Shown here: positions 20,875-31,742 of the stretch, one piece after another
Layout of the letters: every line of letters begins with the position of its first letter
How positions within the stretch are numbered: position 1 is the first letter of the stretch
Assembly: GCA_036170915.1 (NCBI GenBank)
Contig: JAVHQC010000008.1
Coordinates: forward strand, 1-64,000
From: Cyanobacteria bacterium auto_48_18
Lineage (GTDB): Bacteria; Cyanobacteriota; Vampirovibrionia; Obscuribacterales; Obscuribacteraceae
DNA length: 64,000 nt
Direction: 5' to 3'
Made by a program: the position numbers and the translations under genes
The notes under the pieces: generated by a model
Seen by the model: the letters and a program-made list of their open reading frames with translations, nothing else
Database searches by the model: none
What the model was told of the DNA's origin: nothing

Positions 20875-21762
20875 ATGAGTTCTACGAAGGCCAAGTTCGA
20901 AGCCAAGTTCAGCACTTTGTCCCATAACGCTTATGGCAAGTCAGGCATACGTTTGACCAAAGTTATTAACCACGGTGACCATCAGGAATTAAAAGAACTG
21001 ACGGCCAATATTCAGCTCGAAGGCGAGTTCGAAAACTCATATTTGCAAGGCGATAACAGCAGCATTATTGCCACCGATTCTATGCGCAACACAGTTTATG
21101 TTCTGGCCGCCGAACACGATTTAGCCAGCATCGAATCATTCGCTCAGCACCTCTGCCAGCACTTCTTAACCAAATATCCCCATGTGCAGGAAGCCAGCGT
21201 CAATCTTATTGAAGACCTCTGGTTGCGCATCGAGGCCAAGGGTAAGGCCCATCCTCATGCTTTTGTCAGTGCCGGCAATGAGAAGCGCAGCACTCATGTT
21301 AGCGGCGACAGGCAAGGCCTCTCAGTTCTTTCAGCGATTGAAAATCTGGTGGTGGCTAAAACCACCGAATCAGAGTTCTGGGGATTCATTCGCGATGAAT
21401 TCACGACATTGCCTGAAACTCACGATCGCATTATGGCCACTAGTGTTGAAGCCACCTGGACATACGACGACGATAAGTTGGCTAGCATTGATTTCAATAA
21501 AAATTACGAGACTGTGCGCCAGATTGTGCTTGAAGTTTTTGCCACACACAGCAGTCTGGCAGTGCAGCAAACCCTTTACGCCATGGGCGAAGCGGTACTA
21601 AAAGCAGTGGGCGAAATTTCTGAAATCAACATCACCATGCCTAATCAACATCGCATTGCTTTCAATCTTGAGCCTTTCGGCAAAGCCAATAAGAACGAAA
21701 TTTTTTATCCTATAGATGAGCCTTTTGGGCTGATCTCGGGCACAATTAAGCGAGGGTCATAA
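20875..21762 (+). CDS. pucL: Urate oxidase (cofactor-independent uricase)
   Basis: YGKSGI, IIATDSMRNTVY, KTT.SEF.GFIRDEFTTLPETHDRI, SLAVQQTLY, MPNQH. Confidence 0.93.
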   Translation: MSSTKAKFEAKFSTLSHNAYGKSGIRLTKVINHGDHQELKELTANIQLEGEFENSYLQGDNSSIIATDSMRNTVYVLAAEHDLASIESFAQHLCQHFLTKYPHVQEASVNLIEDLWLRIEAKGKAHPHAFVSAGNEKRSTHVSGDRQGLSVLSAIENLVVAKTTESEFWGFIRDEFTTLPETHDRIMATSVEATWTYDDDKLASIDFNKNYETVRQIVLEVFATHSSLAVQQTLYAMGEAVLKAVGEISEINITMPNQHRIAFNLEPFGKANKNEIFYPIDEPFGLISGTIKRGS

Positions 21763-23186
21763 TGTCGTCGCACCAGTCTTCCATGTTTGGTATTAGAAGT
21801 ACACGTGTCTTGCTCGATGGTGAATTTAAAGCCGCGACGGTACTGGTCAACAATGGCGTGATTTGTGATATTTCCGCCTATGATGCCACTCCTGCTCATT
21901 GCCAAATTGATGATGTGGGCACGCATGTGGTCATGCCTGGATTAGTCGACAGCCATGTACATATCAATGAACCAGGCCGTACAGAGTGGGAAGGTTTCAA
22001 CACAGCTACACGTGCTGCCGCCGCTGGTGGTATCACTACCATTTGTGACATGCCCCTCAACTGCATTCCTGTAACCACTAGCGCTCAGGCTTTTTCAGAA
22101 AAATTGAAACACATTGAAGGCCGCCTCAATGTCGATCTGTGTTTCTGGGGTGGAGTGGTGCCCGGCAATAGTGGTGAATTAAACAAAATGATCGACATGG
22201 GCGTGATGGGATTCAAATGTTTTCTCATTCACTCCGGCATTGATGATTTTCCAAATGTAGAAAGGGCCGACCTTGAGCAAAGTATGCCCATACTCGCCAG
22301 GCGGGGCCTGCCTTTGCTGGTGCATGCTGAGCTTGACTGTTCTCACGGCACTGAGCCAAGTGAAGATGAGGCCGCTCAGCAAAAACTCTTTGCAGAAGAA
22401 CCGCAAAAATATATGCACTTTCTTGCTTCACGGCCTAGAGCCTGGGAAGACGAAGCTATCAAACTGATGATCGATCTTTGCCGACAATTTGATTGCCGCG
22501 TACATATTGTTCACTTATCTTCGTCTGACGCTTTGCCTCTCATCGCTGCAGCAAAGAAGGAAGGCCTGAAAATTACTGCAGAGACATGTCCTCATTACCT
22601 CACCCTCAATGCTGAAGACATCGCCGATGGTGACACCAGATTTAAATGTACTCCACCAATTCGTGAACGCGAAAATTGTGAAAAACTCTGGCAGGGCCTG
22701 AATGATGGCACGCTTGATTTTATTGTTTCTGATCATTCGCCCTGTACCCCTGAACTGAAGCTTTTAAAAGAAGGCAATTTCGACAAGGCCTGGGGCGGCA
22801 TTTCATCGCTGCAATTTGGCCTGCCGGCAGTCTGGAGCGAAGCGTCAAAACGCGGACACACTCTTGCTCGCGTCTCGCAGTGGATGTCACAAGGGCCTGC
22901 TCAGTTTCTCGGTTTAGACAAACGCAAAGGCTCGCTTTCTCCTGGTCATGATGCTGACATTATTGTCTTTGATCCCGATCAAGAACAGAAAATTGAAGCA
23001 GCCATAATTGAGCACAAGCACAAGGTAACCCCGCATGAAGGCCGCGTCTTCAGAGGGAAAGTAAAACAGACTTATGTTCGCGGATTGAAAATTTATGATA
23101 ATGGTCACTTCTCAGATGTGCCTTCTGGTAAGGCATTGATGGGCACAAAATTGGGAGAGTATGTCGATGCAAACGTCCATTCTTGA
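21762..23186 (+). CDS. allB: Allantoinase
   Basis: PGLVDSHVHINEPGRTEWEGF, DMPLNCIP, ETCPHYL, SDHSPC, WGGISSLQ. Confidence 0.96.
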   Translation: MSSHQSSMFGIRSTRVLLDGEFKAATVLVNNGVICDISAYDATPAHCQIDDVGTHVVMPGLVDSHVHINEPGRTEWEGFNTATRAAAAGGITTICDMPLNCIPVTTSAQAFSEKLKHIEGRLNVDLCFWGGVVPGNSGELNKMIDMGVMGFKCFLIHSGIDDFPNVERADLEQSMPILARRGLPLLVHAELDCSHGTEPSEDEAAQQKLFAEEPQKYMHFLASRPRAWEDEAIKLMIDLCRQFDCRVHIVHLSSSDALPLIAAAKKEGLKITAETCPHYLTLNAEDIADGDTRFKCTPPIRERENCEKLWQGLNDGTLDFIVSDHSPCTPELKLLKEGNFDKAWGGISSLQFGLPAVWSEASKRGHTLARVSQWMSQGPAQFLGLDKRKGSLSPGHDADIIVFDPDQEQKIEAAIIEHKHKVTPHEGRVFRGKVKQTYVRGLKIYDNGHFSDVPSGKALMGTKLGEYVDANVHS

Positions 23187-24174
23187 AGCTTCTGCCTTTA
23201 CAGGATTGATTGATCTGGCCACTGAAAAGCTCGGGGGCAAAGCGCTCTGTTGCAGCGACGAATTTTTTGCTGAGAAGGAAAATTTGCTCAAGCCTGGCCG
23301 CGGTATTTTCATTGAAGACAAATATACTAAAAACGGTAAGTGGATGGATGGCTGGGAGAGTCGCAGAAAGCGGGTGCCCGGTTACGATTGGTGCATAGTC
23401 AAATTGGGATTGCCTGGTATCATCCGTGGTGTTGATATTGACACCAATCATTTCCTTGGCAATCATCCACCTTACGCATCACTGGAAGCCTGCATCGCGC
23501 CCGGTGAAGAGAATGCGGATAAACTGGCGTCGGCAAAATGGGTAGAGATTGTGCCACGGTCATCGCTAAAGGCCGGCTCGCAAAATCTGTTCGGCGTCTC
23601 TAGCAGCGAGGCTTGGACGCACGTGCGATTGAATATTTTCCCTGACGGTGGCGTGGCCCGTCTGAAAATATTTGGTGATGTTGTTCCTGATTTGAGCAAA
23701 ATTAAAGAAGACGCTCTGGTAGATCTGGCCGCTGTGGAATTTGGCGCTCGAGTGGTGGCATGCAACGACATGTTCTTCGGTAACATGGAAAACTTGATTA
23801 TGCCTGGCCGCGGCAGGAACATGGGGGATGCCTGGGAAACCAGACGTAAACGCGGCCCCGGCCACGACTGGGTCATAGTCAAAATGGGACAACCAGGCCT
23901 GGTGAAAAAGCTAGAAGTTGATACCGCTTTCCACATCGGCAATTATCCTGATACTTGCTCTATTGATGGTTGCTACTCGCCTGACCTCGACATCGATAAC
24001 CTTACCTGGCCACAAGCGACCTGGAAAGAGCTTCTGCCACAACTCAAATTGCAAGCCGACAAGCAACACTATTTTGAAAAAGAGATTATCGACATCGGCA
24101 AAATTACTCACGTGCGCTTGAATATCTACCCTGATGGTGGAGTGGCGCGCCTCCGCGTGCACTGCAAACGCTAA
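23161..24174 (+). CDS. alc: Allantoicase
   Basis: SDEFFA, DGWESRRKR, duplicated WETRRKR and RLNI.PDGGVARL repeats. Confidence 0.96.
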   Translation: MSMQTSILEASAFTGLIDLATEKLGGKALCCSDEFFAEKENLLKPGRGIFIEDKYTKNGKWMDGWESRRKRVPGYDWCIVKLGLPGIIRGVDIDTNHFLGNHPPYASLEACIAPGEENADKLASAKWVEIVPRSSLKAGSQNLFGVSSSEAWTHVRLNIFPDGGVARLKIFGDVVPDLSKIKEDALVDLAAVEFGARVVACNDMFFGNMENLIMPGRGRNMGDAWETRRKRGPGHDWVIVKMGQPGLVKKLEVDTAFHIGNYPDTCSIDGCYSPDLDIDNLTWPQATWKELLPQLKLQADKQHYFEKEIIDIGKITHVRLNIYPDGGVARLRVHCKR

Positions 24175-24191
24175 CAACAACTATAGCGATA

Positions 24192-24695
24192 ATGAATCTA
24201 GATCAACTTAACACCACCGCTGCTCAGGAACTAATGCCTGAGTTGCGGCGTTGTTGCGGCAGCGAGACTTGGGCCAGCCGGTTAATTGACCGCAGGCCAT
24301 TTGTTTCTCTTGAGCAGTTAATGCAGACCTCGGACCAAATTTGGAACGGGCTTGAGCAAGCCGATTGGCTGGAAGCTTTCAGTCATCACCCGAAGATTGG
24401 CGATTTGAATAGTTTAAAAGCTAAGTTTGCTACAACCAGTGAGTGGGCGGCTGGAGAGCAGGGTGGAGTGGCACTTGCCGATAACAAAGTGATCGAGGCT
24501 CTTGCCAGCGGTAATGCATCTTACGAACAAAAATTCGGATATATATTTATCGTTTGTGCCGCAGGCAAATCAGCAAGCGAAATGCTGGCCCTGCTACAAG
24601 AACGGCACACCAACAGCCCTGCTGCTGAAATTCAAGTTGCTATGCAAGAACAAAACAAGATTACTAGATTGAGATTGGAAAAATTACTGTCATGA
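24192..24695 (+). CDS. uraD: OHCU decarboxylase
   Basis: WLEAFSHHPKIG, GNASYEQKFGYIFIVCA, EQNKITRLRL. Confidence 0.95.
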   Translation: MNLDQLNTTAAQELMPELRRCCGSETWASRLIDRRPFVSLEQLMQTSDQIWNGLEQADWLEAFSHHPKIGDLNSLKAKFATTSEWAAGEQGGVALADNKVIEALASGNASYEQKFGYIFIVCAAGKSASEMLALLQERHTNSPAAEIQVAMQEQNKITRLRLEKLLS

Positions 24696-25033
24696 GCAAG
24701 ATTACAACTCACGTTCTCGATGTATCGATAGGCCGCCCCGCGGCTGGAGTCGACGTTGTGCTTGAGCATAAAGGCGTCGACGATTGGAGCGAAGTGGGCC
24801 GCGGCATCACCGACAACGATGGTCGCTGTCGCGATTTGGTTCCTGATAGCTGGCAGTTGAAGCCTGGTACCTATCAGCTTACTTTTAATACCGGCGGATA
24901 TTTTGAGGCTACACACAGACAGAATTTTTATCCTAGTGTGCCAATCATATTTGAGATAATCAACGCCCACGAGCATCACCACGTGCCGCTTTTACTCAGC
25001 CCCTTTGGCTATTCAACCTACAGAGGCAGTTAA
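24692..25033 (+). CDS. uraH: 5-hydroxyisourate hydrolase
   Basis: ITTHVLD...GRPA, HVPLLLSPFGYSTYRGS. Confidence 0.97.
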   Translation: MSKITTHVLDVSIGRPAAGVDVVLEHKGVDDWSEVGRGITDNDGRCRDLVPDSWQLKPGTYQLTFNTGGYFEATHRQNFYPSVPIIFEIINAHEHHHVPLLLSPFGYSTYRGS

Positions 25034-25108
25034 GAAGAGCAAAGCAGGCAGCAATAGATTTAGTTTGAAAAGTAAGTTAGCAGTTAAATAGCACATAAGG
25101 GAGTGACC

Positions 25109-26569
25109 ATGAAAGTTAGTTTGCCAGAATCTACAACCAGTGATGTGTTCAGTAAATTGGGCCAAGCCAACGCTGCTTTCAATAAATTTTACCCTGGTGA
25201 CTCGTCGGCCAGGCAGCCGGTGCACACCGTATATGGTGGCGCACAGTTGTTTAAGGCTGATTCGGCTAGAAAGCTTGGTGTGATGGCGGTTGCTAATCTC
25301 GAGGAATATGCTCCCGATTTTACCGTTCTAGCCCGGGCACTAGATTTGCCAGGCGCCGAGTCGTTGCCGCTGGGCGCTGATGAAATTGCTAAGTTGACTA
25401 AATCTCTTTCAGAAAATGCCAAAACCGGTTCGACGAAAACCGAATTGCACGGACGTCTTGCATATACCGTATATCAGCGGGTAAAAGAGAAATTGCAACG
25501 CGAGGCAGTGGAAGATTTCCGCATTGATTTTGAGGATGGCTACGGAAACAGGCCTGACGCAGAAGAAGATGGTCACGCCGAAGCTGCCGCTCGCGAAGTA
25601 GCAAAAGGCATGCGTGATAAGCTCTTGCCCCCATTTATCGGCATCCGCATCAAGCCTTTTAATGAAGAGTTGAAACTGCGCAGCGCCCGTACGCTCGATA
25701 TTTTCATCACTACTCTGGTGGAAGAAACCGGCGGCCAGTTGCCCGACAATTTTGTCGTTACCTTGCCGAAAGTGACTATTCCAGAGCAAGTAACTGCTTT
25801 AGTGGAACTGTTCAAGCTTTTGGAAAGCAAGACAGCGTTGCGCCCCGGCAGCTTAAAAATGGAAATTATGATTGAGCAAACTCAAGCTTTGTTCAATAGG
25901 AAAGGTGAGTGTAACTTGCCTTTGTTGGCTGAGGCTGCCGACGGACGTTGTGTTGCCGCCCACTTCGGTACATACGATTACACTGCCTCCTGCAACATAA
26001 CGGCTTCCCAACAGCGCATGGACCATCCATCATGCGACTTTGCTCTGCACATGATGAAAGTCACTTTCGCCGGCACAGGTATCTGGCTTTCTGATGGTGC
26101 CACCAACGTAATGCCGGTTGGCCCTCACCGCGCCGAAAAAGGCGGTCAATTGACAGATTTGCAGAAAGCGGAGAATCAAGAAGTGGTACACAGGGCCTGG
26201 AAATTGGCCTACGATCACACTCGCCATTCATTGGTTCAAGCTTATTATCAAGGTTGGGATCTTCACCCAGCTCAGCTGCCCGTGCGTTACGCCGCCTGTT
26301 ATGCTTTCTTCCTCGAAGGTCTTGATGCCGCTTCTCTGCGTCTCAAATCATTCATGGAAAAGGCTGCTCAGGCTACTCTTGTGGGAGACGTCTTTGATGA
26401 TGCCGCCACAGGCCAGGGCTTACTTAACTATTTCTTGCGTGCCATCAACTGTGGTGCCATCACTCTCGATGAAATTGCCGCCACCGGCTTGACACTGGAA
26501 GAAATTCAGACCAGATCGTTCCTGAAAATTCTCGCTGGCCGAACGAAGCAAGTGCAAACAGCTAAGTAG
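25109..26569 (+). CDS. CitE/HpcH-like (malate synthase / citrate lyase beta superfamily) protein in the purine-degradation operon
   Basis: RQPVHTVYGGA, EDFRIDFEDGYG, VTLPKV, EIMIE, HFGTYDYTA, LSDGATN, QGWDLHPAQL. Confidence 0.7.
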   Translation: MKVSLPESTTSDVFSKLGQANAAFNKFYPGDSSARQPVHTVYGGAQLFKADSARKLGVMAVANLEEYAPDFTVLARALDLPGAESLPLGADEIAKLTKSLSENAKTGSTKTELHGRLAYTVYQRVKEKLQREAVEDFRIDFEDGYGNRPDAEEDGHAEAAAREVAKGMRDKLLPPFIGIRIKPFNEELKLRSARTLDIFITTLVEETGGQLPDNFVVTLPKVTIPEQVTALVELFKLLESKTALRPGSLKMEIMIEQTQALFNRKGECNLPLLAEAADGRCVAAHFGTYDYTASCNITASQQRMDHPSCDFALHMMKVTFAGTGIWLSDGATNVMPVGPHRAEKGGQLTDLQKAENQEVVHRAWKLAYDHTRHSLVQAYYQGWDLHPAQLPVRYAACYAFFLEGLDAASLRLKSFMEKAAQATLVGDVFDDAATGQGLLNYFLRAINCGAITLDEIAATGLTLEEIQTRSFLKILAGRTKQVQTAK

Positions 26570-26713
26570 AGAGCGCGAAAGCTGTTAATCAAGCTTGAGA
26601 TGGTGTGGCTATATAATTATGTACGGCCTTGCTGCTGGCATTGTTACGATTGTGACCACCGGTCAAAACATTTCATTTGCCCATCGTCAGTTTGTCTGTT
26701 ACGGTAGGAAAAC

Positions 26714-26844
26714 TATGACAGCCAAAAACGCCTACAGCTATTACTACTATACCTACTCCCTCGGGGTCGGCTAGCTGGCGTTGTCATAAAAGTCTAGAAC
26801 TTATGAACAAAAGCCTTCTCGTCGATCGAGAGGGCTTTTTCTTT
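26714..26844 (+). promoter_or_regulatory. Ribosome-mediated transcription attenuator (Tyr-sensing)
   Basis: Alternative helices: 26714-26740 with 26772-26788; antiterminator 26777-26789 with 26801-26815; terminator 26809-26821 with 26827-26839 plus T tract. Confidence 0.82.
26715..26774 (+). CDS. Tyrosine-rich leader peptide MTAKNAYSYYYYTYSLGVG
   Basis: ATG at 26715 after TAGGA RBS; six Tyr codons among codons 7-14; TAG at 26772. Confidence 0.88.
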   Translation: MTAKNAYSYYYYTYSLGVG

Positions 26845-26874
26845 GCTTTGAAAATCTAAAAAGGATAAATAATC

Positions 26875-27771
26875 ATGCTTCAAGAAGTACAAAACACTCG
26901 ACTGAATACATTTAAAAACAGAGTTGACGAGCTCATTGGCACCCATCCGATCGTCACTTCAAACGGCTTCACCAGCTGGTTTAGTCAGGGCTGCGCAAGC
27001 CCAGAACAACTGCGTGCATTCACTGTACAGTTCTCAGTTTTCAGCCATCTGTTTATTGAAGCGCAGCTGCGCAAATGCATCAACGCCTCTGACCTGGCCA
27101 GCTACAGAGCAGGCAAAGAAATTTTGATGAACGAGCTTGGTGTCATGTTCACCAAAGATGGCTCCATCGATAACGGACGCTTTCGCTTCACCGCTGCACA
27201 TTTCGAGTGGCTGGCTGATTTCGCCAGTCATTTAGGATTGACCTTTGGCCAAATAGGCAAGCGTAAACACGGCAGCCAGGCAACTTTAGCCTTCTGCGAT
27301 GCGCTTATGACCTGGTACGGCTCAGATGACGAGTCTACCGCTGCTGGAGCTTCGCATGCCATAGAGCATTGGGCAGCGGCTGGATTTTGGAAAGAGCTAA
27401 TTGCCGGATTGAAGATAATTAAAGCCAGTCAGATTGCCGATTTGCCGTTAGCTTTTTGGGTTTTTCATGATCAAATTGAAGATCAGCACGCTGCTCATAC
27501 CGATGATGAATTAGCCAGCGCTTTTGCCAAATCTGATTTTGATGAAGAAGCATTTTTGCAAGGTGGTAAAGCAATGCTCGACGCGGTAGCGATTTTCTGG
27601 AATGGCCTCGATGCAGAGCGTCAAACGTTGGAGAATGAGTCGGTCCAGCCTGGTGCTACTAAGGCCGATGCTACTAAAACTGCTGAGCCAACGCACTGCA
27701 AATCTCACCCTCGCGACATCGGCACCGTTCAGCTAATTGAGGCGGGTCGCCCACTCAAACAAGCGGTCTAG
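26875..27771 (+). CDS. Heme-oxygenase-like (TenA/PqqC/CADD fold) putative diiron oxidase
   Basis: QF..FS..F; ILMNELG...AAHFEW; AIEHWA; FWVFHDQIEDQHAAH; AIFWNGL give an E..H..E..HxxxExxH ligand pattern. Confidence 0.78.
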   Translation: MLQEVQNTRLNTFKNRVDELIGTHPIVTSNGFTSWFSQGCASPEQLRAFTVQFSVFSHLFIEAQLRKCINASDLASYRAGKEILMNELGVMFTKDGSIDNGRFRFTAAHFEWLADFASHLGLTFGQIGKRKHGSQATLAFCDALMTWYGSDDESTAAGASHAIEHWAAAGFWKELIAGLKIIKASQIADLPLAFWVFHDQIEDQHAAHTDDELASAFAKSDFDEEAFLQGGKAMLDAVAIFWNGLDAERQTLENESVQPGATKADATKTAEPTHCKSHPRDIGTVQLIEAGRPLKQAV

Positions 27772-27844: not shown

Positions 27845-28309
27845 ATGAATTATCAGGCCGAAGGCTACCATTCCTTAACTCCATACATGACCATGCGCGA
27901 CGCGGCCAAAGCAATTGAGTTTTATAAGAAAGTTTTGGGCGCCACTGAGCGAATGAGACTAGATGGTCCCGATGGCACAATTGGGCATTGTGAATTGCAG
28001 ATTGGCGATTCAATAATTATGCTTGGTGACGAGTGTCCCGAAGGCAAAAGCCCCCACACTTTAGGTGGAAGCCCCGTTGGCCTTTTGCTGTACGTTCCGA
28101 ATGTGGACACCACAATTAAAGCTGCAATGGACAATGGCGCTACATTGCAAAAAGCTGCTCAAGATCAGTTCTATGGCGATCGTTCCGGCAGTGTTATAGA
28201 TCCTTTCGGTCACGTCTGGCATTTTGCTACTCATATAGAAGATGTTACTCCGGAAGAAATGCAAAAACGTGCTGCCGAAATGGCCAAACAGCACGCTGTA
28301 GCTAAGTAA
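27845..28309 (+). CDS. VOC/glyoxalase (PhnB-like) protein
   Basis: LTPY...DAAKAIEFYKKVLGA, HCELQIGDS, DQFYGDRSGSVIDPFGHVW. Confidence 0.92.
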   Translation: MNYQAEGYHSLTPYMTMRDAAKAIEFYKKVLGATERMRLDGPDGTIGHCELQIGDSIIMLGDECPEGKSPHTLGGSPVGLLLYVPNVDTTIKAAMDNGATLQKAAQDQFYGDRSGSVIDPFGHVWHFATHIEDVTPEEMQKRAAEMAKQHAVAK

Positions 28310-28898: not shown

Positions 28899-29189
28899 AG
28901 TATTTTTCACCTGGCAATCACATCTTTAAAACCTGCAGACACTCTCTGCAAATTGACATGAGTGCTTACTTACCATTCTAGTACGTGGAAGGGTAGGAAG
29001 TCAAGAGGTGAGATTGCTTGAATCCCTCTGGGCAATGGCTTCTTCTTGAAGGTATAGTTTTCAAAGTAATGTAGAATGGCTTAAACAGCGAGTCTTGGCG
29101 GCGTGCTTGAGCTAGAAGATTTAGAGCTGATAGGAGCGGGCGGGCTGCGGCTTTAGGGATCCCGCGACGATTTACTAGTGAGTTCAACC

Positions 29190-31742
29190 ATGAAATCTGG
29201 AGCAAAAGATCATTCGCCGCGAGCCGTCACCAATGACACCAGTCAGTTCGTCCTTGTACGTGGTGCGCGTGAGAATAATCTGAAAAATATTGATGTTGAT
29301 ATTCCGCGAGATGCCCTCGTAGTCTTTACTGGTGTGTCCGGTTCAGGCAAGTCGTCACTGGCTTTCGGCACACTTTATGCAGAAGCGCAGCGTCGATATC
29401 TAGAGTCTGTTTCACCTTATGCCAGGCGTCTTTTTCATCAGATGAGCGTGCCTGAAGTAGACAAAATTGATGGTCTGCCACCAGCGGTGGCGCTGCAACA
29501 ACAGCGTGGCACGCCCACTACCAGGTCATCTGTCGGTAGTGTCACTACTCTTTCAAATTTGCTGCGCATGCTTTATTCACGAGCAGGAACCTATCCGGCC
29601 AACCAACCACATCTGGATGCCGAGGCATTTTCCACTAACACTCCATCTGGTGCGTGTGCTGAATGCCATGGCCTCGGCCGCATCTATACGGTTACTGAGC
29701 AGTCCATGGTGCCTGACGACACCCTTACCATTCGCGAGCGCGCCATCGCCGCATGGCCACCAGCCTGGCACGGTCAAAATTTACGCGACATGCTTGTCAC
29801 TCTCGGGTACGACATCGACAAACCCTGGAACAAAATGTCGAAAAAAGATCGCGACTGGATTTTATTCACTGACGATCAGCCTGTAGTGCCCGTGTATGCC
29901 GGTTTTGAAGCGCACGAGGTTAAGGCGGCGCTGAAGCGCAAAGAGCCACCAAGCTATCACGGCAATTTTTCCAGCGCTCGCAGACATGTGCTCTACAATT
30001 TCGCCAATACACAGAGTGCACTGATGAAAAAGCGCGTCTCTAAATATATGGTCAGCGCCGATTGCCCCAGCTGCCAGGGTAAAAGGTTGCGTAAAGAGTC
30101 ACTATCAGTCACTTTCGCTGGCCTAGACATTGCTGACATTACTGATCTTCCCATGATTAAAATGCAAGCTTTGCTTGAGCCTTACGTTTCAGGCAAGGCA
30201 CCAGCTCTGGCTAAAATCTCAAAAGACCATCCGGAAAAAGCAGTGGTGGCGCAGCGTATCGCTCAAGATTTAAGTGATCGCATTTCGGTTTTGCTTAATT
30301 TAGGTCTTGGATATTTGGCGCTTAGCCGCGGCACCCCCACTCTTTCACCTGGTGAACTGCAGCGCTTGAGACTGGCTACTCAAGTGCGTTCTAATTTATT
30401 CGGCGTGGTTTATGTATTGGATGAACCGTCAGCCGGATTGCATCCTGCCGACACAGAGGCACTACTTGCGGCGCTGGCAGATTTAAAAAGTTCCGGAAAT
30501 TCACTTTTTGTGGTTGAACATGATCTCGACGTCATCAGACATGCTGACTGGATTGTAGACGTCGGACCTGCTGCTGGAGAGCACGGCGGACAAATTTTAT
30601 ATAGCGGGCCATCAGCCGGACTGGCAGAAATTTCAGACTCACGCACAAGGCAATATTTGTTTGCTTCTCCCTGGGTGCCAGAACGCCAGGCGCGCAAACC
30701 AGCAGGATGGCTGAAACTAGCCGGTGTAACCCGCAATAATTTAAATCAACTTGATATTGCTTTTCCTGTCAGCGCTTTTACAACGGTCACTGGCGTATCC
30801 GGTTCGGGTAAATCCAGTCTGGTCAGCCAGGCATTAGTGGAGCTTGTTGCTGAGCGCCTGGGACATCAATTACCTGTGGGCGAAGATGAAGGCGAGATGC
30901 TGGAGCGTGTAGAAATGGCGCGTACCGGTGGCCATATTGACGGTACTATGGATGGTATCAAGCGCCTGGTGGTTGTCGACCAAAAAGCTATTGGCCGCAC
31001 TCCTCGATCAAATCTTGCTACATATACTGGTCTATTTGATCACGTTCGCAAATTGTTTGCCAACACTAAAGCCGCCAAAGCCCGTCATTACGATGCCGGA
31101 CGCTTCTCCTTCAATGTTTCTAAAGGCCGTTGCGAAACTTGCGAAGGCGAGGGTTTCGTCATGGTCGAATTGCTTTTTTTGCCTAGCGTCTACGCTCCAT
31201 GTCCGACCTGTCATGGAGCCAGATACAATGCCAAAACTTTAGACATCAAATATCGAGATAAAAATATTGCCGAAGTGCTGGCTATGACTGTTGATGCCGC
31301 CTGGGAATTTTTCCAGGATGAGCCAACTATAAGACGCTCATTCCATGTTTTGCGTGAAGTAGGGCTTGGCTATTTGCGCCTTGGTCAGCCTGCTACCGAA
31401 TTGTCTGGTGGTGAAGCTCAGCGCATAAAATTGGCCACAGAATTGCAGCGAATGCAGAAAGGAGACACGCTCTATGTGCTCGATGAGCCCACCACGGGCC
31501 TTCACCCATCTGATGTGGAAAAGCTGTTGAAGCAGTTAGACGGTCTGGTTGATTCTGGTAATACTGTGGTTGTAGTCGAGCATGAAATGCGCGTGGTGGC
31601 AGGAAGTGATTGGGTGATTGATATCGGCCCTGGTGCCGGAGATCAAGGCGGCAAAGTTGTGGTTGCCGGGCCACCGAATCTGGTGGCGGCCGCAAAGAGT
31701 AGTCGCACTGCACCTTATTTAAAACGTTTTCTGGCTCAATAA
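29190..31742 (+). CDS. UvrA-family ATPase (short class II / DrrC-like paralogue)
   Basis: GARENNLKN, two [20 protein letters not shown] and [12 protein letters not shown], zinc modules; about 850 aa. Confidence 0.9.

Follow-up and report, generated by a model that had tools for sequence, protein, structure and literature searches.

The window, a 64,000-nucleotide stretch of DNA, carries on its + strand a gene (26875..27771) for a 298-residue enzyme predicted to have the fold and dimetal site of the heme-oxygenase-like diiron oxidases (HDOs). A Tyr-shortage switch precedes the gene and the carriers are without the usual tyrosine gene, and thus the enzyme probably makes tyrosine, most likely from phenylalanine. 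On balance, the sequence evidence leans towards an O2-dependent, pterin-independent para-hydroxylase of L-phenylalanine or phenylpyruvate. The product would probably be tyrosine or its keto acid 4-hydroxyphenylpyruvate (4-HPP), and the enzyme probably represents an uncharacterised, diiron HDO family. Sequence analysis supports the fold and ligands, the conserved attenuator anatomy, the gene content of carriers and the HPPD operon setting described below, whereas it is inferred which metal and substrate are used, what reaction follows and that an external reductant is needed. Of the two reactions put forward in the first-pass annotation, Phe 4-hydroxylation appears to fit better than a TyrA-like decarboxylation, because the carriers are also without a detectable chorismate mutase and often without prephenate dehydratase (PDT).

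The open reading frame starts with ATG, 10 nt after a Shine-Dalgarno sequence read as AGGA (26862..26865, + strand). Residues 1-252 form a conserved core, and the tail (residues 253-298) was non-conserved and modelled with low confidence. The core contains the HDO ligand pattern that the first-pass annotation had described, namely N86-E87, H109-F-E-W, E164-H-W and H198-x3-E202-x2-H205. The six ligands (E87, H109, E164, H198, E202 and H205) were kept in 159-160 of the 160 orthologous loci and were nearly invariant in a 47-sequence alignment with identities down to 25%. Three further polar residues, H24, N30 and Q52, were conserved in the alignment and the orthologous loci. The structure prediction proposed earlier gave an AF2 model (pLDDT 90.5, pTM 0.85) with the all-helical heme-oxygenase-like fold, and its top 33 Foldseek matches (E<=1e-3) were CADD, PolF, PqqC, BesC, UndA, HrmI and TenA-like chains. 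The closest solved fold was that of CtCADD, with a TM-score of 0.81-0.83 by target length and an RMSD of 3.0-3.3 Å. CtCADD cleaves a Tyr and does not make one, which we counted against the preferred reading.

The Pfam search with the enzyme gave a sub-threshold match to Haem_oxygenas_2 (PF14518; 22 bits, gathering cut-off 28.9), a label that is precomputed on a few homologues. No match to Biopterin_H (PF00351) was found in the same search, and the fold also differs. The single protein retrieved 3b5o as the sole match in the PDB sequence search (E 0.37), the profile search gave weak matches to BesC, NePabS (E 1.3e-4) and CADD (CT610, E 0.022), and the ESM Atlas search returned generic TenA/PqqC-like clusters only. 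Judged from its sequence, the family is a divergent HDO branch. Assignment to PqqC or TenA, which are cofactor-less and share the fold, was rejected, as the enzyme has the metal ligand set and no pqq or thi genes lie beside it. Nothing in the analysis backs the name "PQQ biosynthesis protein C" that some sources give to homologues. One relative carries a cytochrome b5 fusion, consistent with the presumed need for an electron supply. The protein contains exactly 2 Tyr and 21 Phe, as the first-pass annotation had estimated. Compared with the 2089 ORFs of at least 300 aa in the same genome, its Tyr content falls at the 1.7th percentile and its Phe content at the 96th. This Tyr-poor, Phe-rich composition was counted in favour of the preferred reading.

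A leader ORF of 19 codons, 6 of them Tyr, was found upstream (26715..26774, + strand); it encodes MTAKNAYSYYYYTYSLGVG followed by a stop codon and has AGGA 7-10 nt upstream. Four consecutive Tyr codons (TAT TAC TAC TAT, 26739..26750, + strand) were read as the proposed ribosome stall site, with two more Tyr codons at 26733-26735 and 26754-26756. In the whole 4.94-Mb genome, just 12 runs of at least four Tyr codons were counted on the two strands together. In the MFE folds, segment 1 (ACC UAC UCC, 26751..26759, + strand) pairs with GGGGUCGG in the resting state. Folds of truncated RNA place the antiterminator 5' strand, segment 2 (GUCGGC UAG CUGGC), at 26766..26779 (+ strand), where it overlaps the leader stop codon and the last two sense codons. 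An intrinsic terminator follows at 26809..26849 (+ strand), with the stem 26809-26821 / 26827-26839, the conserved loop UCGAU (26822-26826) and a T tract. Its 5' arm and loop also make up segment 3 of the predicted antiterminator (26813..26826, + strand). A perfect TATAAT at 26612..26617 (+ strand) is a candidate -10 element of the leader transcript by sequence reading; a consensus promoter scan called no full promoter at this position. In Eremiobacterota loci, boxes resembling TTGCAT-N17/18-TATAGT precede the leader ATG by 9-12 nt.

With this anatomy, scarce Tyr-tRNA would stall the ribosome on the leader Tyr run, so that segment 1 would be covered and GUCGGC would be free to pair with the terminator 5' arm and loop. 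RNA polymerase would then continue into the enzyme gene. With Tyr in good supply, the ribosome would move on to the stop codon overlapping GUCGGC, the terminator would form and transcription would end.

The Tyr-run leader, with 19-27 codons and 3-6 consecutive Tyr codons, was found in 76 of 81 loci, or 76 of the 77 assessable ones, from Obscuribacterales and Eremiobacterota, which belong to two phyla. Four of the five misses were unassessable: in two the gene sits at the edge of its contig, and in the other two the contig begins inside a group II intron. A terminator stands between leader and enzyme gene in 76/76 loci, and in its alignment 98.3% of the positions were paired, with 45 double-change cells and 6 pairs with double changes (0/500 shuffles reached the observed value). 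The GUCGGC of segment 2 is conserved across the two phyla. Pairing of the antiterminator in fixed register was 70.2%, compared with 30-58% in slid controls. In the truncated-RNA folds of 73 sequences, 74% of the 5'-arm bases were paired, compared with 57% in shuffles (mean z -2.5). Linked changes exist, such as GUCAGA with UCUGAC in L018 and L019, and the covariation of the fixed-register alignment was not significant against shuffles (36/500 for double-change cells, 107/500 for the score). The conservation of the terminator loop would otherwise be needless, and it is accounted for because the predicted antiterminator GUCGGC:GCCGAY pairs there. The position of the leader stop codon varies (GGCUAG versus a GGCCAG read-through), yet the RNA sequence is retained.

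The Rfam search with the leader returned no family, the best match being Thr_leader with 18 bits (gathering score 55, E 0.88), and the search with the regions upstream of distant homologues returned none either. The architecture recurs in nearly all assessable loci and is therefore that expected of a classical Tyr attenuator that is absent from Rfam. By its RNA architecture, the leader probably represents a new family of attenuators, found beyond the lineages in which they have mostly been studied. The earlier proposal that the enzyme is Tyr-attenuated is supported by the conserved leader and terminator and by the predicted antiterminator.

The tyrosine pathway was compared between carriers and non-carriers in 61 Obscuribacteraceae genomes, comprising 10 carriers (in 5 genera, so that kin are not independent) and 51 non-carriers; the genomes sampled were mostly MAGs, 83-96% complete where a figure was given. 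The fused chorismate mutase-prephenate dehydrogenase (CM-PDH) was found in 0/10 carriers versus 23/51 non-carriers, any PDH_N in 3/10 versus 46/51, CM_2 in 1/10 versus 45/51 and PDT in 6/10 versus 46/51. Among 121 Eremiobacterota genomes, PDH_N was present in 2/12 carriers, where it was strong, versus 60/109 others. A pterin-dependent hydroxylase (PF00351) was found in 0/30 carriers tested. The first-pass annotation had asked whether carriers lack tyrA and phhA, and these counts largely bear this out. Neither chorismate mutase family was detected in 9 of the 10 Obscuribacteraceae carriers or in G184-G188, and PDT is missing in genus g1 and in G184, G185, G186 and G188.

The source genome is 86% complete and contains chorismate synthase; no PDH_N above the cut-off was found in it, the only weak match being ProC, nor any Biopterin_H, PDT, CM_2 or CM_1. 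The short TyrA-like gene of its sister genomes is deleted at the syntenic site. A PDH-PDT fusion has an in-frame stop in its PDH part in G088, is a 459-aa open frame in G092, and is intact in G051, the one HDO-negative congener examined. The chromosome-level carriers G185, G186 and G187 have no PDH_N; G185 and G186 have no PDT, CM_2 or CM_1 either, and G187 has two PDT genes and no CM. A TyrA-like gene of 253-271 aa is retained in G084, G096 and G188. PDH_N is also missing in 5/51 Obscuribacteraceae and 49/109 Eremiobacterota non-carriers, so that TyrA absence is not exclusive to carriers. These exceptions, together with the strong PDH_N of the two Eremiobacterota carriers, count against the preferred reading. 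Five carriers keep PDT without a detectable chorismate mutase; an undetected mutase may thus exist, which weakens the argument that prephenate is unavailable.

A second setting was found in a high-GC soil lineage, whose orthologue has the same ligands and 63% identity to the window enzyme. A divergent Lrp/AsnC regulator lies beside it in 54/60 loci, and a 4-hydroxyphenylpyruvate dioxygenase (HPPD) lies on the other side, on the same strand, in 54/59. A Tyr leader was found in 0/60 of these loci. PDH_N was present in all four high-GC genomes tested, which points to a catabolic role there, like that of phhA; phhA is known to cluster with hpd. A class II DAHP synthase lies ~0.6-4.5 kb upstream of the orthologue in 7/80 high-GC loci, and one is also found in L062. 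The clustering with aro or phe genes that had been suggested earlier therefore has its counterpart in this lineage, and the thiamine, PQQ and folate contexts named as refuting ones were not found among the neighbour genes. In a class-level survey around a high-GC carrier, 4/151 genomes carry the gene, too few for an HDO-PhhA distribution test. More distant homologues (35-49% identity) occur in TyrA-bearing genomes and have no Tyr leader upstream (0/12), and therefore they were left out of the functional inference.

No conserved reductase or aminotransferase partner was found among the neighbours, which counts against the preferred reading. At the window locus, the upstream neighbours are allantoinase, allantoicase, OHCU decarboxylase, HIUase and DUF6986. 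A novel urate oxidase was considered and rejected, as these purine genes are found beside it only in the nearest Obscuribacter loci and the neighbourhood is wholly different elsewhere; the leader and terminator also make the enzyme gene a unit of its own, which argues against a purine link. A PLP decarboxylase partner, found downstream next to panE in 7 loci, was judged a lineage-specific neighbour and rejected.

The foremost alternative, to which we give a minor but real share of the probability, is an unforeseen substrate in Tyr-related metabolism, for example in Tyr salvage, whether from modified tyrosine or from some other 4-hydroxyphenyl compound, or in a Tyr-sparing reaction. No result here identifies the substrate, HDO reactions are very diverse according to a review of the superfamily (PMC13108848), and the conserved polar residues H24, N30 and Q52 have no assigned role. 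However, such a substrate would have to make sense both where TyrA-less genomes induce the gene on Tyr starvation and where it is co-transcribed with HPPD under an Lrp-type regulator, and few generally available substrates besides Phe and phenylpyruvate satisfy both settings.

It is rather improbable that the enzyme is a non-homologous TyrA replacement that oxidatively decarboxylates prephenate (to 4-HPP) or arogenate (to Tyr) with O2 by a UndA/BesC-like H-abstraction. Such an enzyme would fit the attenuation by Tyr and the inverse distribution of PDH_N equally well, and the fold and profile neighbours include UndA and BesC, which the review (PMC13108848) describes as C-C-cleaving. The PDT kept in five carriers implies some source of prephenate, and the nearby DAHP synthase also speaks for this reaction. 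However, prephenate and arogenate should not be made in the carriers without PDT (genus g1, G184, G185, G186 and G188), no chorismate mutase was detected in most carriers, and the PDH_N of the four HPPD-operon genomes tested would make a second prephenate-to-4-HPP enzyme redundant. A broader version, which we likewise consider doubtful, is that the enzyme replaces CM-PDH as a whole, forming the 4-hydroxyphenyl skeleton from a cyclohexadienyl precursor (prephenate, arogenate or even chorismate) through O2-driven diiron H-abstraction and decarboxylation. This is suggested by carriers without the fused CM-PDH, and the PDT genes kept without a recognisable mutase leave room for an unrecognised prephenate source. 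Such a type of reaction is not known from nature.

The first-pass annotation had offered as its own alternative that the Tyr-rich peptide is the substrate; this is now disfavoured and seems very unlikely. The peptide would serve either as a RiPP-type precursor or as a sacrificial Tyr donor in a CADD-like cleavage to pABA, another 4-substituted benzoate or a cofactor. The closest fold is a self-sacrificial pABA synthase (CtCADD), NePabS is a profile match, a short Tyr-rich ORF precedes the gene in most loci, and 59 of 80 leader-context orthologues have Tyr at the position of CADD Tyr27 (the other 21 have Phe). However, the conservation is at the nucleotide level, with a moving stop codon and a peptide 3' end that doubles as the antiterminator, and the HPPD-context orthologues are without any peptide (0/60). 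No conserved protease, transporter or other RiPP gene and no folate genes were seen among the recurrent neighbours, and expression under Tyr shortage has the wrong sign for a Tyr consumer. The window enzyme itself has F32 at the Tyr27 position in the HMM alignment, and the CtCADD Y27F variant is reported to be inactive (PMC9522330).

Two routes to tyrosine are known, one through TyrA-type dehydrogenases and one through pterin-dependent phenylalanine hydroxylation. Under the preferred reading, para-hydroxylation of Phe or phenylpyruvate, a heme-oxygenase-like diiron enzyme would be a third, unrelated tyrosine-making catalyst. It would serve anabolism in two little-known phyla (non-photosynthetic cyanobacterial relatives and Eremiobacterota) and catabolism in high-GC soil bacteria. 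Such an enzyme would close apparent tyrosine auxotrophies in the genome-based metabolic reconstructions of these MAG-only groups, widen HDO chemistry to arene hydroxylation and bring the superfamily from natural-product pathways to core metabolism. For biotechnology, it would offer a cofactor-free Phe-to-Tyr catalyst with no pterin recycling. No HDO that hydroxylates an arene ring appears in the consulted part of the HDO review (PMC13108848), which counts against the preferred reading. A literature search, mainly of titles and abstracts, likewise found no such enzyme, no diiron or pterin-independent Phe hydroxylase, and no paper on the enzyme family or on a Tyr leader in the phyla of Vampirovibrionia and Eremiobacterota.

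Comparison with known attenuators showed that the leader resembles trpL, pheL, hisL, thrL and leuL in its small ORF containing consecutive codons for the sensed amino acid, its intrinsic terminator, its mutually exclusive 1:2, 2:3 and 3:4 pairings (predicted here) and its stop codon in segment 2. It differs in that it is predicted to sense Tyr and to control a single non-canonical enzyme gene, occurs in Vampirovibrionia and Eremiobacterota and has no Rfam family. A further difference is that part of the predicted antiterminator pairs with the terminator loop.

Among tyrosine-supplying enzymes, PhhA/PAH (PF00351) would share the proposed reaction with the window enzyme, supplying Tyr without TyrA and acting in Phe catabolism upstream of HPPD. 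There is no kinship in sequence or fold, and PhhA/PAH uses a mononuclear Fe and tetrahydropterin, as opposed to the dinuclear site predicted here. TyrA, in these genomes mostly a fused CM_2-PDH T-protein, also supplies the 4-hydroxyphenyl skeleton, and its distribution in Obscuribacteraceae is complementary to that of the HDO. TyrA, however, works without O2 as an NAD(P)-dependent enzyme of the Rossmann fold and is unrelated to the window enzyme in sequence and fold.

Within the HDO superfamily, the self-sacrificial pABA synthases CtCADD and NePabS have the same 3-His/3-carboxylate layout, give the best structural match and weak profile similarity, and also handle a tyrosine side chain, as is predicted for the window enzyme. 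However, they share only 18-19% identity with it, and Lys152 of CtCADD is aligned with Leu. They belong with folate genes, whereas the window family is found with a Tyr attenuator or in an HPPD operon and is predicted to make Tyr, not to destroy it. BesC, HrmI, PolF, AetD, SktA and UndA have the same fold and ligand set, and their substrates are free amino acids or carboxylates according to the HDO review and abstracts (PMC13108848). These enzymes act in natural-product pathways by C-C cleavage, N-oxygenation or rearrangement, whereas the window family stands in a primary-metabolism setting and is predicted to hydroxylate an arene.

The HDO ORF (26875–27771, + strand) starts with an ATG, has an AGGA ten bases upstream and encodes 298 residues. 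In Pfam it showed only sub-threshold matches, to Haem_oxygenas_2 (22 bits against a cut-off of 28.9) and DUF3865, and a search of NCBIfam gave no match. The diiron ligand pattern described in the first-pass annotation is present as N86-E87, H109-FEW, E164-HW and H198-x3-E202-x2-H205. In an alignment of 47 sequences reaching down to 25% identity, E87, H109, E164, H198, E202 and H205 were nearly invariant, as were H24, N30, Q52, W166 and W172, and the six predicted ligands were kept in 159–160 of 160 orthologous loci. An AlphaFold2 model built from this alignment had a pLDDT of 90.5 and a pTM of 0.85; the non-conserved tail (residues 253–298) lay outside its confident part. The best structural match was CtCADD (TM 0.81–0.83 by target length, 18–19% identity), followed by a Nostoc CADD-like protein, PolF, PqqC, BesC, UndA and HrmI, and a profile search of PDB sequences gave weak relatives only (BesC, 2.4e-5; NePabS, 1.3e-4; CT610, 0.022). 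Its modelled fold and predicted ligands place the protein within the HDO superfamily, on a branch that has no characterised member. Assignment as a CADD-type pABA synthase was rejected, as a phenylalanine occupies the position of Tyr27 of CADD; assignments as PqqC or TenA were also rejected. The low Tyr and high Phe content reported earlier was borne out by exactly 2 Tyr and 21 Phe, placing the protein at the 1.7th and 96th percentiles, respectively, of the 2089 long ORFs in its genome; in the 120 closest homologues, Tyr averages 1.4% and Phe 7.5%.

Upstream of the gene lies a leader ORF, MTAKNAYSYYYYTYSLGVG (26715–26774; 19 codons, with its own AGGA), followed by a hairpin with a 13-bp stem and a T tract (26809–26849). 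We collected 212 HDO relatives from species-representative genomes and kept 80 loci, which came from Obscuribacterales/Melainabacteria and Eremiobacterota/Vulcanimicrobiota. Counting the window, a leader of 19–27 codons with 3–6 consecutive Tyr codons preceded the HDO gene in 76 of 81 loci. Among the exceptions, two have the gene at a contig edge (L056, L057) and two lie on contigs beginning inside a group II intron (L001, Rfam RF01998; L009, RF00029), so the leader is present in 76 of 77 assessable loci; the fifth (L062) belongs to a different context, that of the HPPD gene described below. Runs of at least four Tyr codons occur only 12 times on both strands of the 4.94-Mb genome, and several of these lie in simple repeats near the ends of contigs. 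In all 76 loci, leader and gene are separated by a terminator hairpin followed by a T run. The 11 pairs of this hairpin were 98.3% paired in a 65-sequence alignment, and the 45 double-change cells in 6 pairs were reached by none of 500 shuffles. The proposed Tyr attenuator was thereby confirmed as a conserved leader and terminator. Class C group II introns prefer a T tract right behind a terminator as target, and the introns in L001 (1–1700) and L009 (1–110) lie in the T tract directly after the attenuator terminator, ~70–90 nt before the enzyme gene; unless spliced out, they would part the leader from that gene.

At some loci the leader ORF ends with the string GUCGGC-UAG/CAG-GU..., whereas at others the frame continues through it for six further codons, so the apparent conservation of the peptide C-terminus is at the RNA level. 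Transcripts were folded with the Tyr run covered by a ribosome footprint and before synthesis of the 3' arm of the terminator. In these truncated folds the conserved GUCGGC pairs with the conserved terminator loop GCCGAY, and the bases after it pair with the 5' arm, whose bases were paired on average at 74% versus 57% in shuffles, with a mean energy z-score of −2.5 over 73 distinct sequences. Linked changes were observed in L018 and L019 (GUCAGA with UCUGAC), L023 (ACGGCUG with CGGCUGU), and L058 and L078 (GUCGGCU with GGCCGGC). In a fixed register the antiterminator helix was 70.2% paired versus 30–58% when slid; covariation counted in this register was not above that of column shuffles, so the case for the antiterminator is one of conserved complementarity and otherwise unexplained loop conservation. 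In the resting fold, segment 1, the codons just after the Tyr run, pairs with GGGGUCGG. The switch geometry read from these sequences is classical: a ribosome stalled on the Tyr run would cover segment 1, and one at the leader stop codon would cover GUCGGC, so HDO expression should rise when Tyr-tRNA is scarce.

The window's genome (86% complete, 39 contigs) contains chorismate synthase. We found in it no prephenate dehydratase (PDT), no chorismate mutase of either family (CM_1, CM_2), no Biopterin_H and no PDH_N over the cut-off, the sole weak PDH_N match being ProC; control genomes scored as expected every time. Three sister genomes (G084, G096, G188) keep a 253–271-aa TyrA-like gene, whose flanks are syntenic on contig C11 of the window's genome around an interval ~640 nt shorter and without a remnant, indicating a deletion rather than an assembly gap. 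Among 61 Obscuribacteraceae genomes, ten carry the HDO gene, from five genera. Strong PDH_N matches, always in one 395–555-aa ORF with CM_2 (a fused T-protein), occurred in 0/10 carriers versus 23/51 non-carriers, any PDH_N over the cut-off in 3/10 versus 46/51, CM_2 at E ≤ 0.001 in 1/10 versus 45/51, and PDT in 6/10 versus 46/51. Among 121 Eremiobacterota genomes, PDH_N over the cut-off was found in 2 of 12 carriers (G257 and G279, each of which also has the Tyr leader) versus 60 of 109 others. These comparisons involve mostly MAGs and relatives that are not independent, and many non-carriers likewise lack TyrA. In one of the three Obscuribacteraceae carriers with PDH_N (G088), the PDH part of a PDH-PDT fusion (L183) is broken by an in-frame stop; in its congener G051, which is HDO-negative, the fusion is intact, as a 453-aa ORF with both domains (contig C2, L184:474–1832), and G092 has a 459-aa open frame over both matches. 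Fusions of 450–495 aa combining a weak PDH_N with PDT are frequent in family members without HDO (G051, G092, G104, G124 and others). PDH_N is missing from the chromosome-level carriers G185, G186 and G187, and G184 has only a sub-threshold match; PDT was absent from G184, G185, G186 and G188, CM_2 from G184–G188, and CM_1 from 12 of 12 carriers. The proposed check for missing phhA came out in favour in 30 of 30 carriers tested; that for missing tyrA did so in most, PDH_N being kept in 3/10 and 2/12.

Five carriers keep PDT without a detectable chorismate mutase, so an unrecognised mutase may exist. PDT genes without a mutase of either Pfam family were seen in genomes G002, G009, G027, G162, G088 and G187, and genus g2 has two PDT copies; these sequences hint at such a mutase or at another role for these PDT proteins.

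A second and independent context was found in L062 (GC 68%), whose HDO protein is 63% identical to the window's and whose gene has no leader. Here the gene is flanked on one side by a divergent Lrp/AsnC-family regulator and on the other by 4-hydroxyphenylpyruvate dioxygenase (HPPD; TIGR01263, 422 bits against a cut-off of 277), whose start overlaps the HDO stop; a class II DAHP synthase (TIGR01358, 689 bits) lies beyond the regulator. A metagenome scan with the L062 protein gave 80 loci of 64–74% GC. Where the locus extended at least 600 nt downstream (59 loci), HPPD came next on the same strand in 54; among the 60 with at least 250 nt upstream, the divergent regulator was present in 54 and a Tyr leader in none. 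DAHP synthase was nearby in 7/80, and no further recurring partner was found in these loci. Clustering with aromatic amino acid genes, raised in the first-pass annotation, is thus seen in this lineage, where HDO is predicted to share a transcript with HPPD, the enzyme of the first committed step in Tyr catabolism. In many bacteria the pterin-dependent phhA occupies the same place, beside the HPPD gene. All four high-GC-lineage genomes tested have PDH_N (two strong, two weaker), so HDO is not needed there for making Tyr; none of the four has Biopterin_H.

A census of the 71 loci where the ORF caller found the HDO gene (nine were dropped) gave no neighbour family in more than 14; seryl-tRNA synthetase, MoeA, beta-lactamase, PLP decarboxylase and others recurred with no common theme, so leader, terminator and HDO gene form a self-contained unit. 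The upstream uricolysis genes and DUF6986, and the downstream VOC/glyoxalase and UvrA-like genes, adjoin HDO only in the closest relatives. The uricolysis cluster (21762–26569) comprises allantoinase, allantoicase, OHCU decarboxylase and HIU hydrolase, then a 488-aa DUF6986 protein (617 bits) weakly resembling malate synthase/HpcH TIM barrels. DUF6986 follows HIUase and allantoicase genes in ~10 related loci and may therefore carry out an unassigned step in ureide or glyoxylate metabolism. Downstream are a 154-aa VOC/glyoxalase-family protein weakly resembling YjdN/PhnB (27845–28309) and an 854-aa UvrA-like ABC ATPase paralogue (29178–31742). At seven loci within L014–L021 the next gene, on the same strand, encodes a 461-aa group II PLP-dependent decarboxylase, preceded in five by ketopantoate reductase; this may be a pantothenate or beta-alanine setting with no link to HDO.

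Of 5699 candidates from a word-index search, 3127 were relatives at E ≤ 0.001. The 120 matches listed were 64–92% identical; those bearing a name are 'hypothetical protein' or, in one source, 'PQQ biosynthesis protein C'. When 50%-identity representatives were searched exhaustively, only 386 clusters reached E ≤ 0.001 and 63 reached E ≤ 1e-30, indicating a compact family. No Tyr leader was found at 12 loci of 35–49% identical homologues from genomes with strong TyrA, and we do not assume a shared function for these. Short ORFs with terminator-like hairpins precede 46% and 55% identical homologues (L097, L098); in L098 the leader contains three spaced Tyr (MFAPAYLIGRYQYRS...), and that of L097, which is rich in Thr, Val and Leu and has no Tyr run, may respond to another amino acid. 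Two 37–39% identical homologues (L083, L084) share a structured-looking 5' region, ...CGAAGGAAGCTYCAGCTTGTCTGRAGC..., ~60–130 nt upstream, with no Rfam family at E ≤ 0.1. Another relative, P0147, carries a fused SAM methyltransferase domain.

The two settings, Tyr starvation without TyrA and co-expression with HPPD where TyrA is present, fit production of Tyr or 4-hydroxyphenylpyruvate from a generally available precursor and do not fit Tyr consumption. On balance, HDO is probably an O2-dependent, pterin-independent para-hydroxylase of Phe or phenylpyruvate. Its diferrous centre would activate O2, the activated centre would attack the aromatic ring, and a cellular reductant would re-reduce it. 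A 50% identical relative (P0123, 391 aa) with a fused N-terminal cytochrome b5-like heme-binding domain (60 bits) would fit this need for electrons. That the enzyme acts on some unforeseen Tyr-related substrate is rather unlikely. A TyrA-like oxidative decarboxylase, also proposed earlier, is more doubtful still, as carriers mostly lack chorismate mutase and often PDT, making Phe or phenylpyruvate a likelier precursor than prephenate or arogenate. The earlier alternative that the Tyr-rich peptide is itself the substrate is very improbable, given its moving stop codon, the orthologues without any peptide, the Phe at the Tyr27 position and a sign of regulation contrary to it. The earlier reading of a new Tyr-making HDO is supported as far as sequence analysis reaches, and is directly testable with one gene.

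Among literature listings and abstracts, neither this HDO family nor a Tyr leader from these phyla nor any diiron Phe hydroxylase was found to be reported, and passages of a 2026 HDO review name no Tyr-forming or arene-hydroxylating member (PMC13108848). An Rfam search of the leader gave no matching family; Thr_leader came closest, with 18 bits where the gathering score is 55 and an E-value of 0.88. HDO has no homology to PhhA or TyrA; if it is a para-hydroxylase, it works like PhhA. The regulatory element would operate in the same manner as trpL and pheL; it differs from them in sensing Tyr, in its absence from Rfam and in occurring outside the lineages from which most described attenuators come. 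The sequences thus point to an attenuator-controlled amino-acid supply gene of a known kind, combined with a new functional branch of the HDO superfamily.
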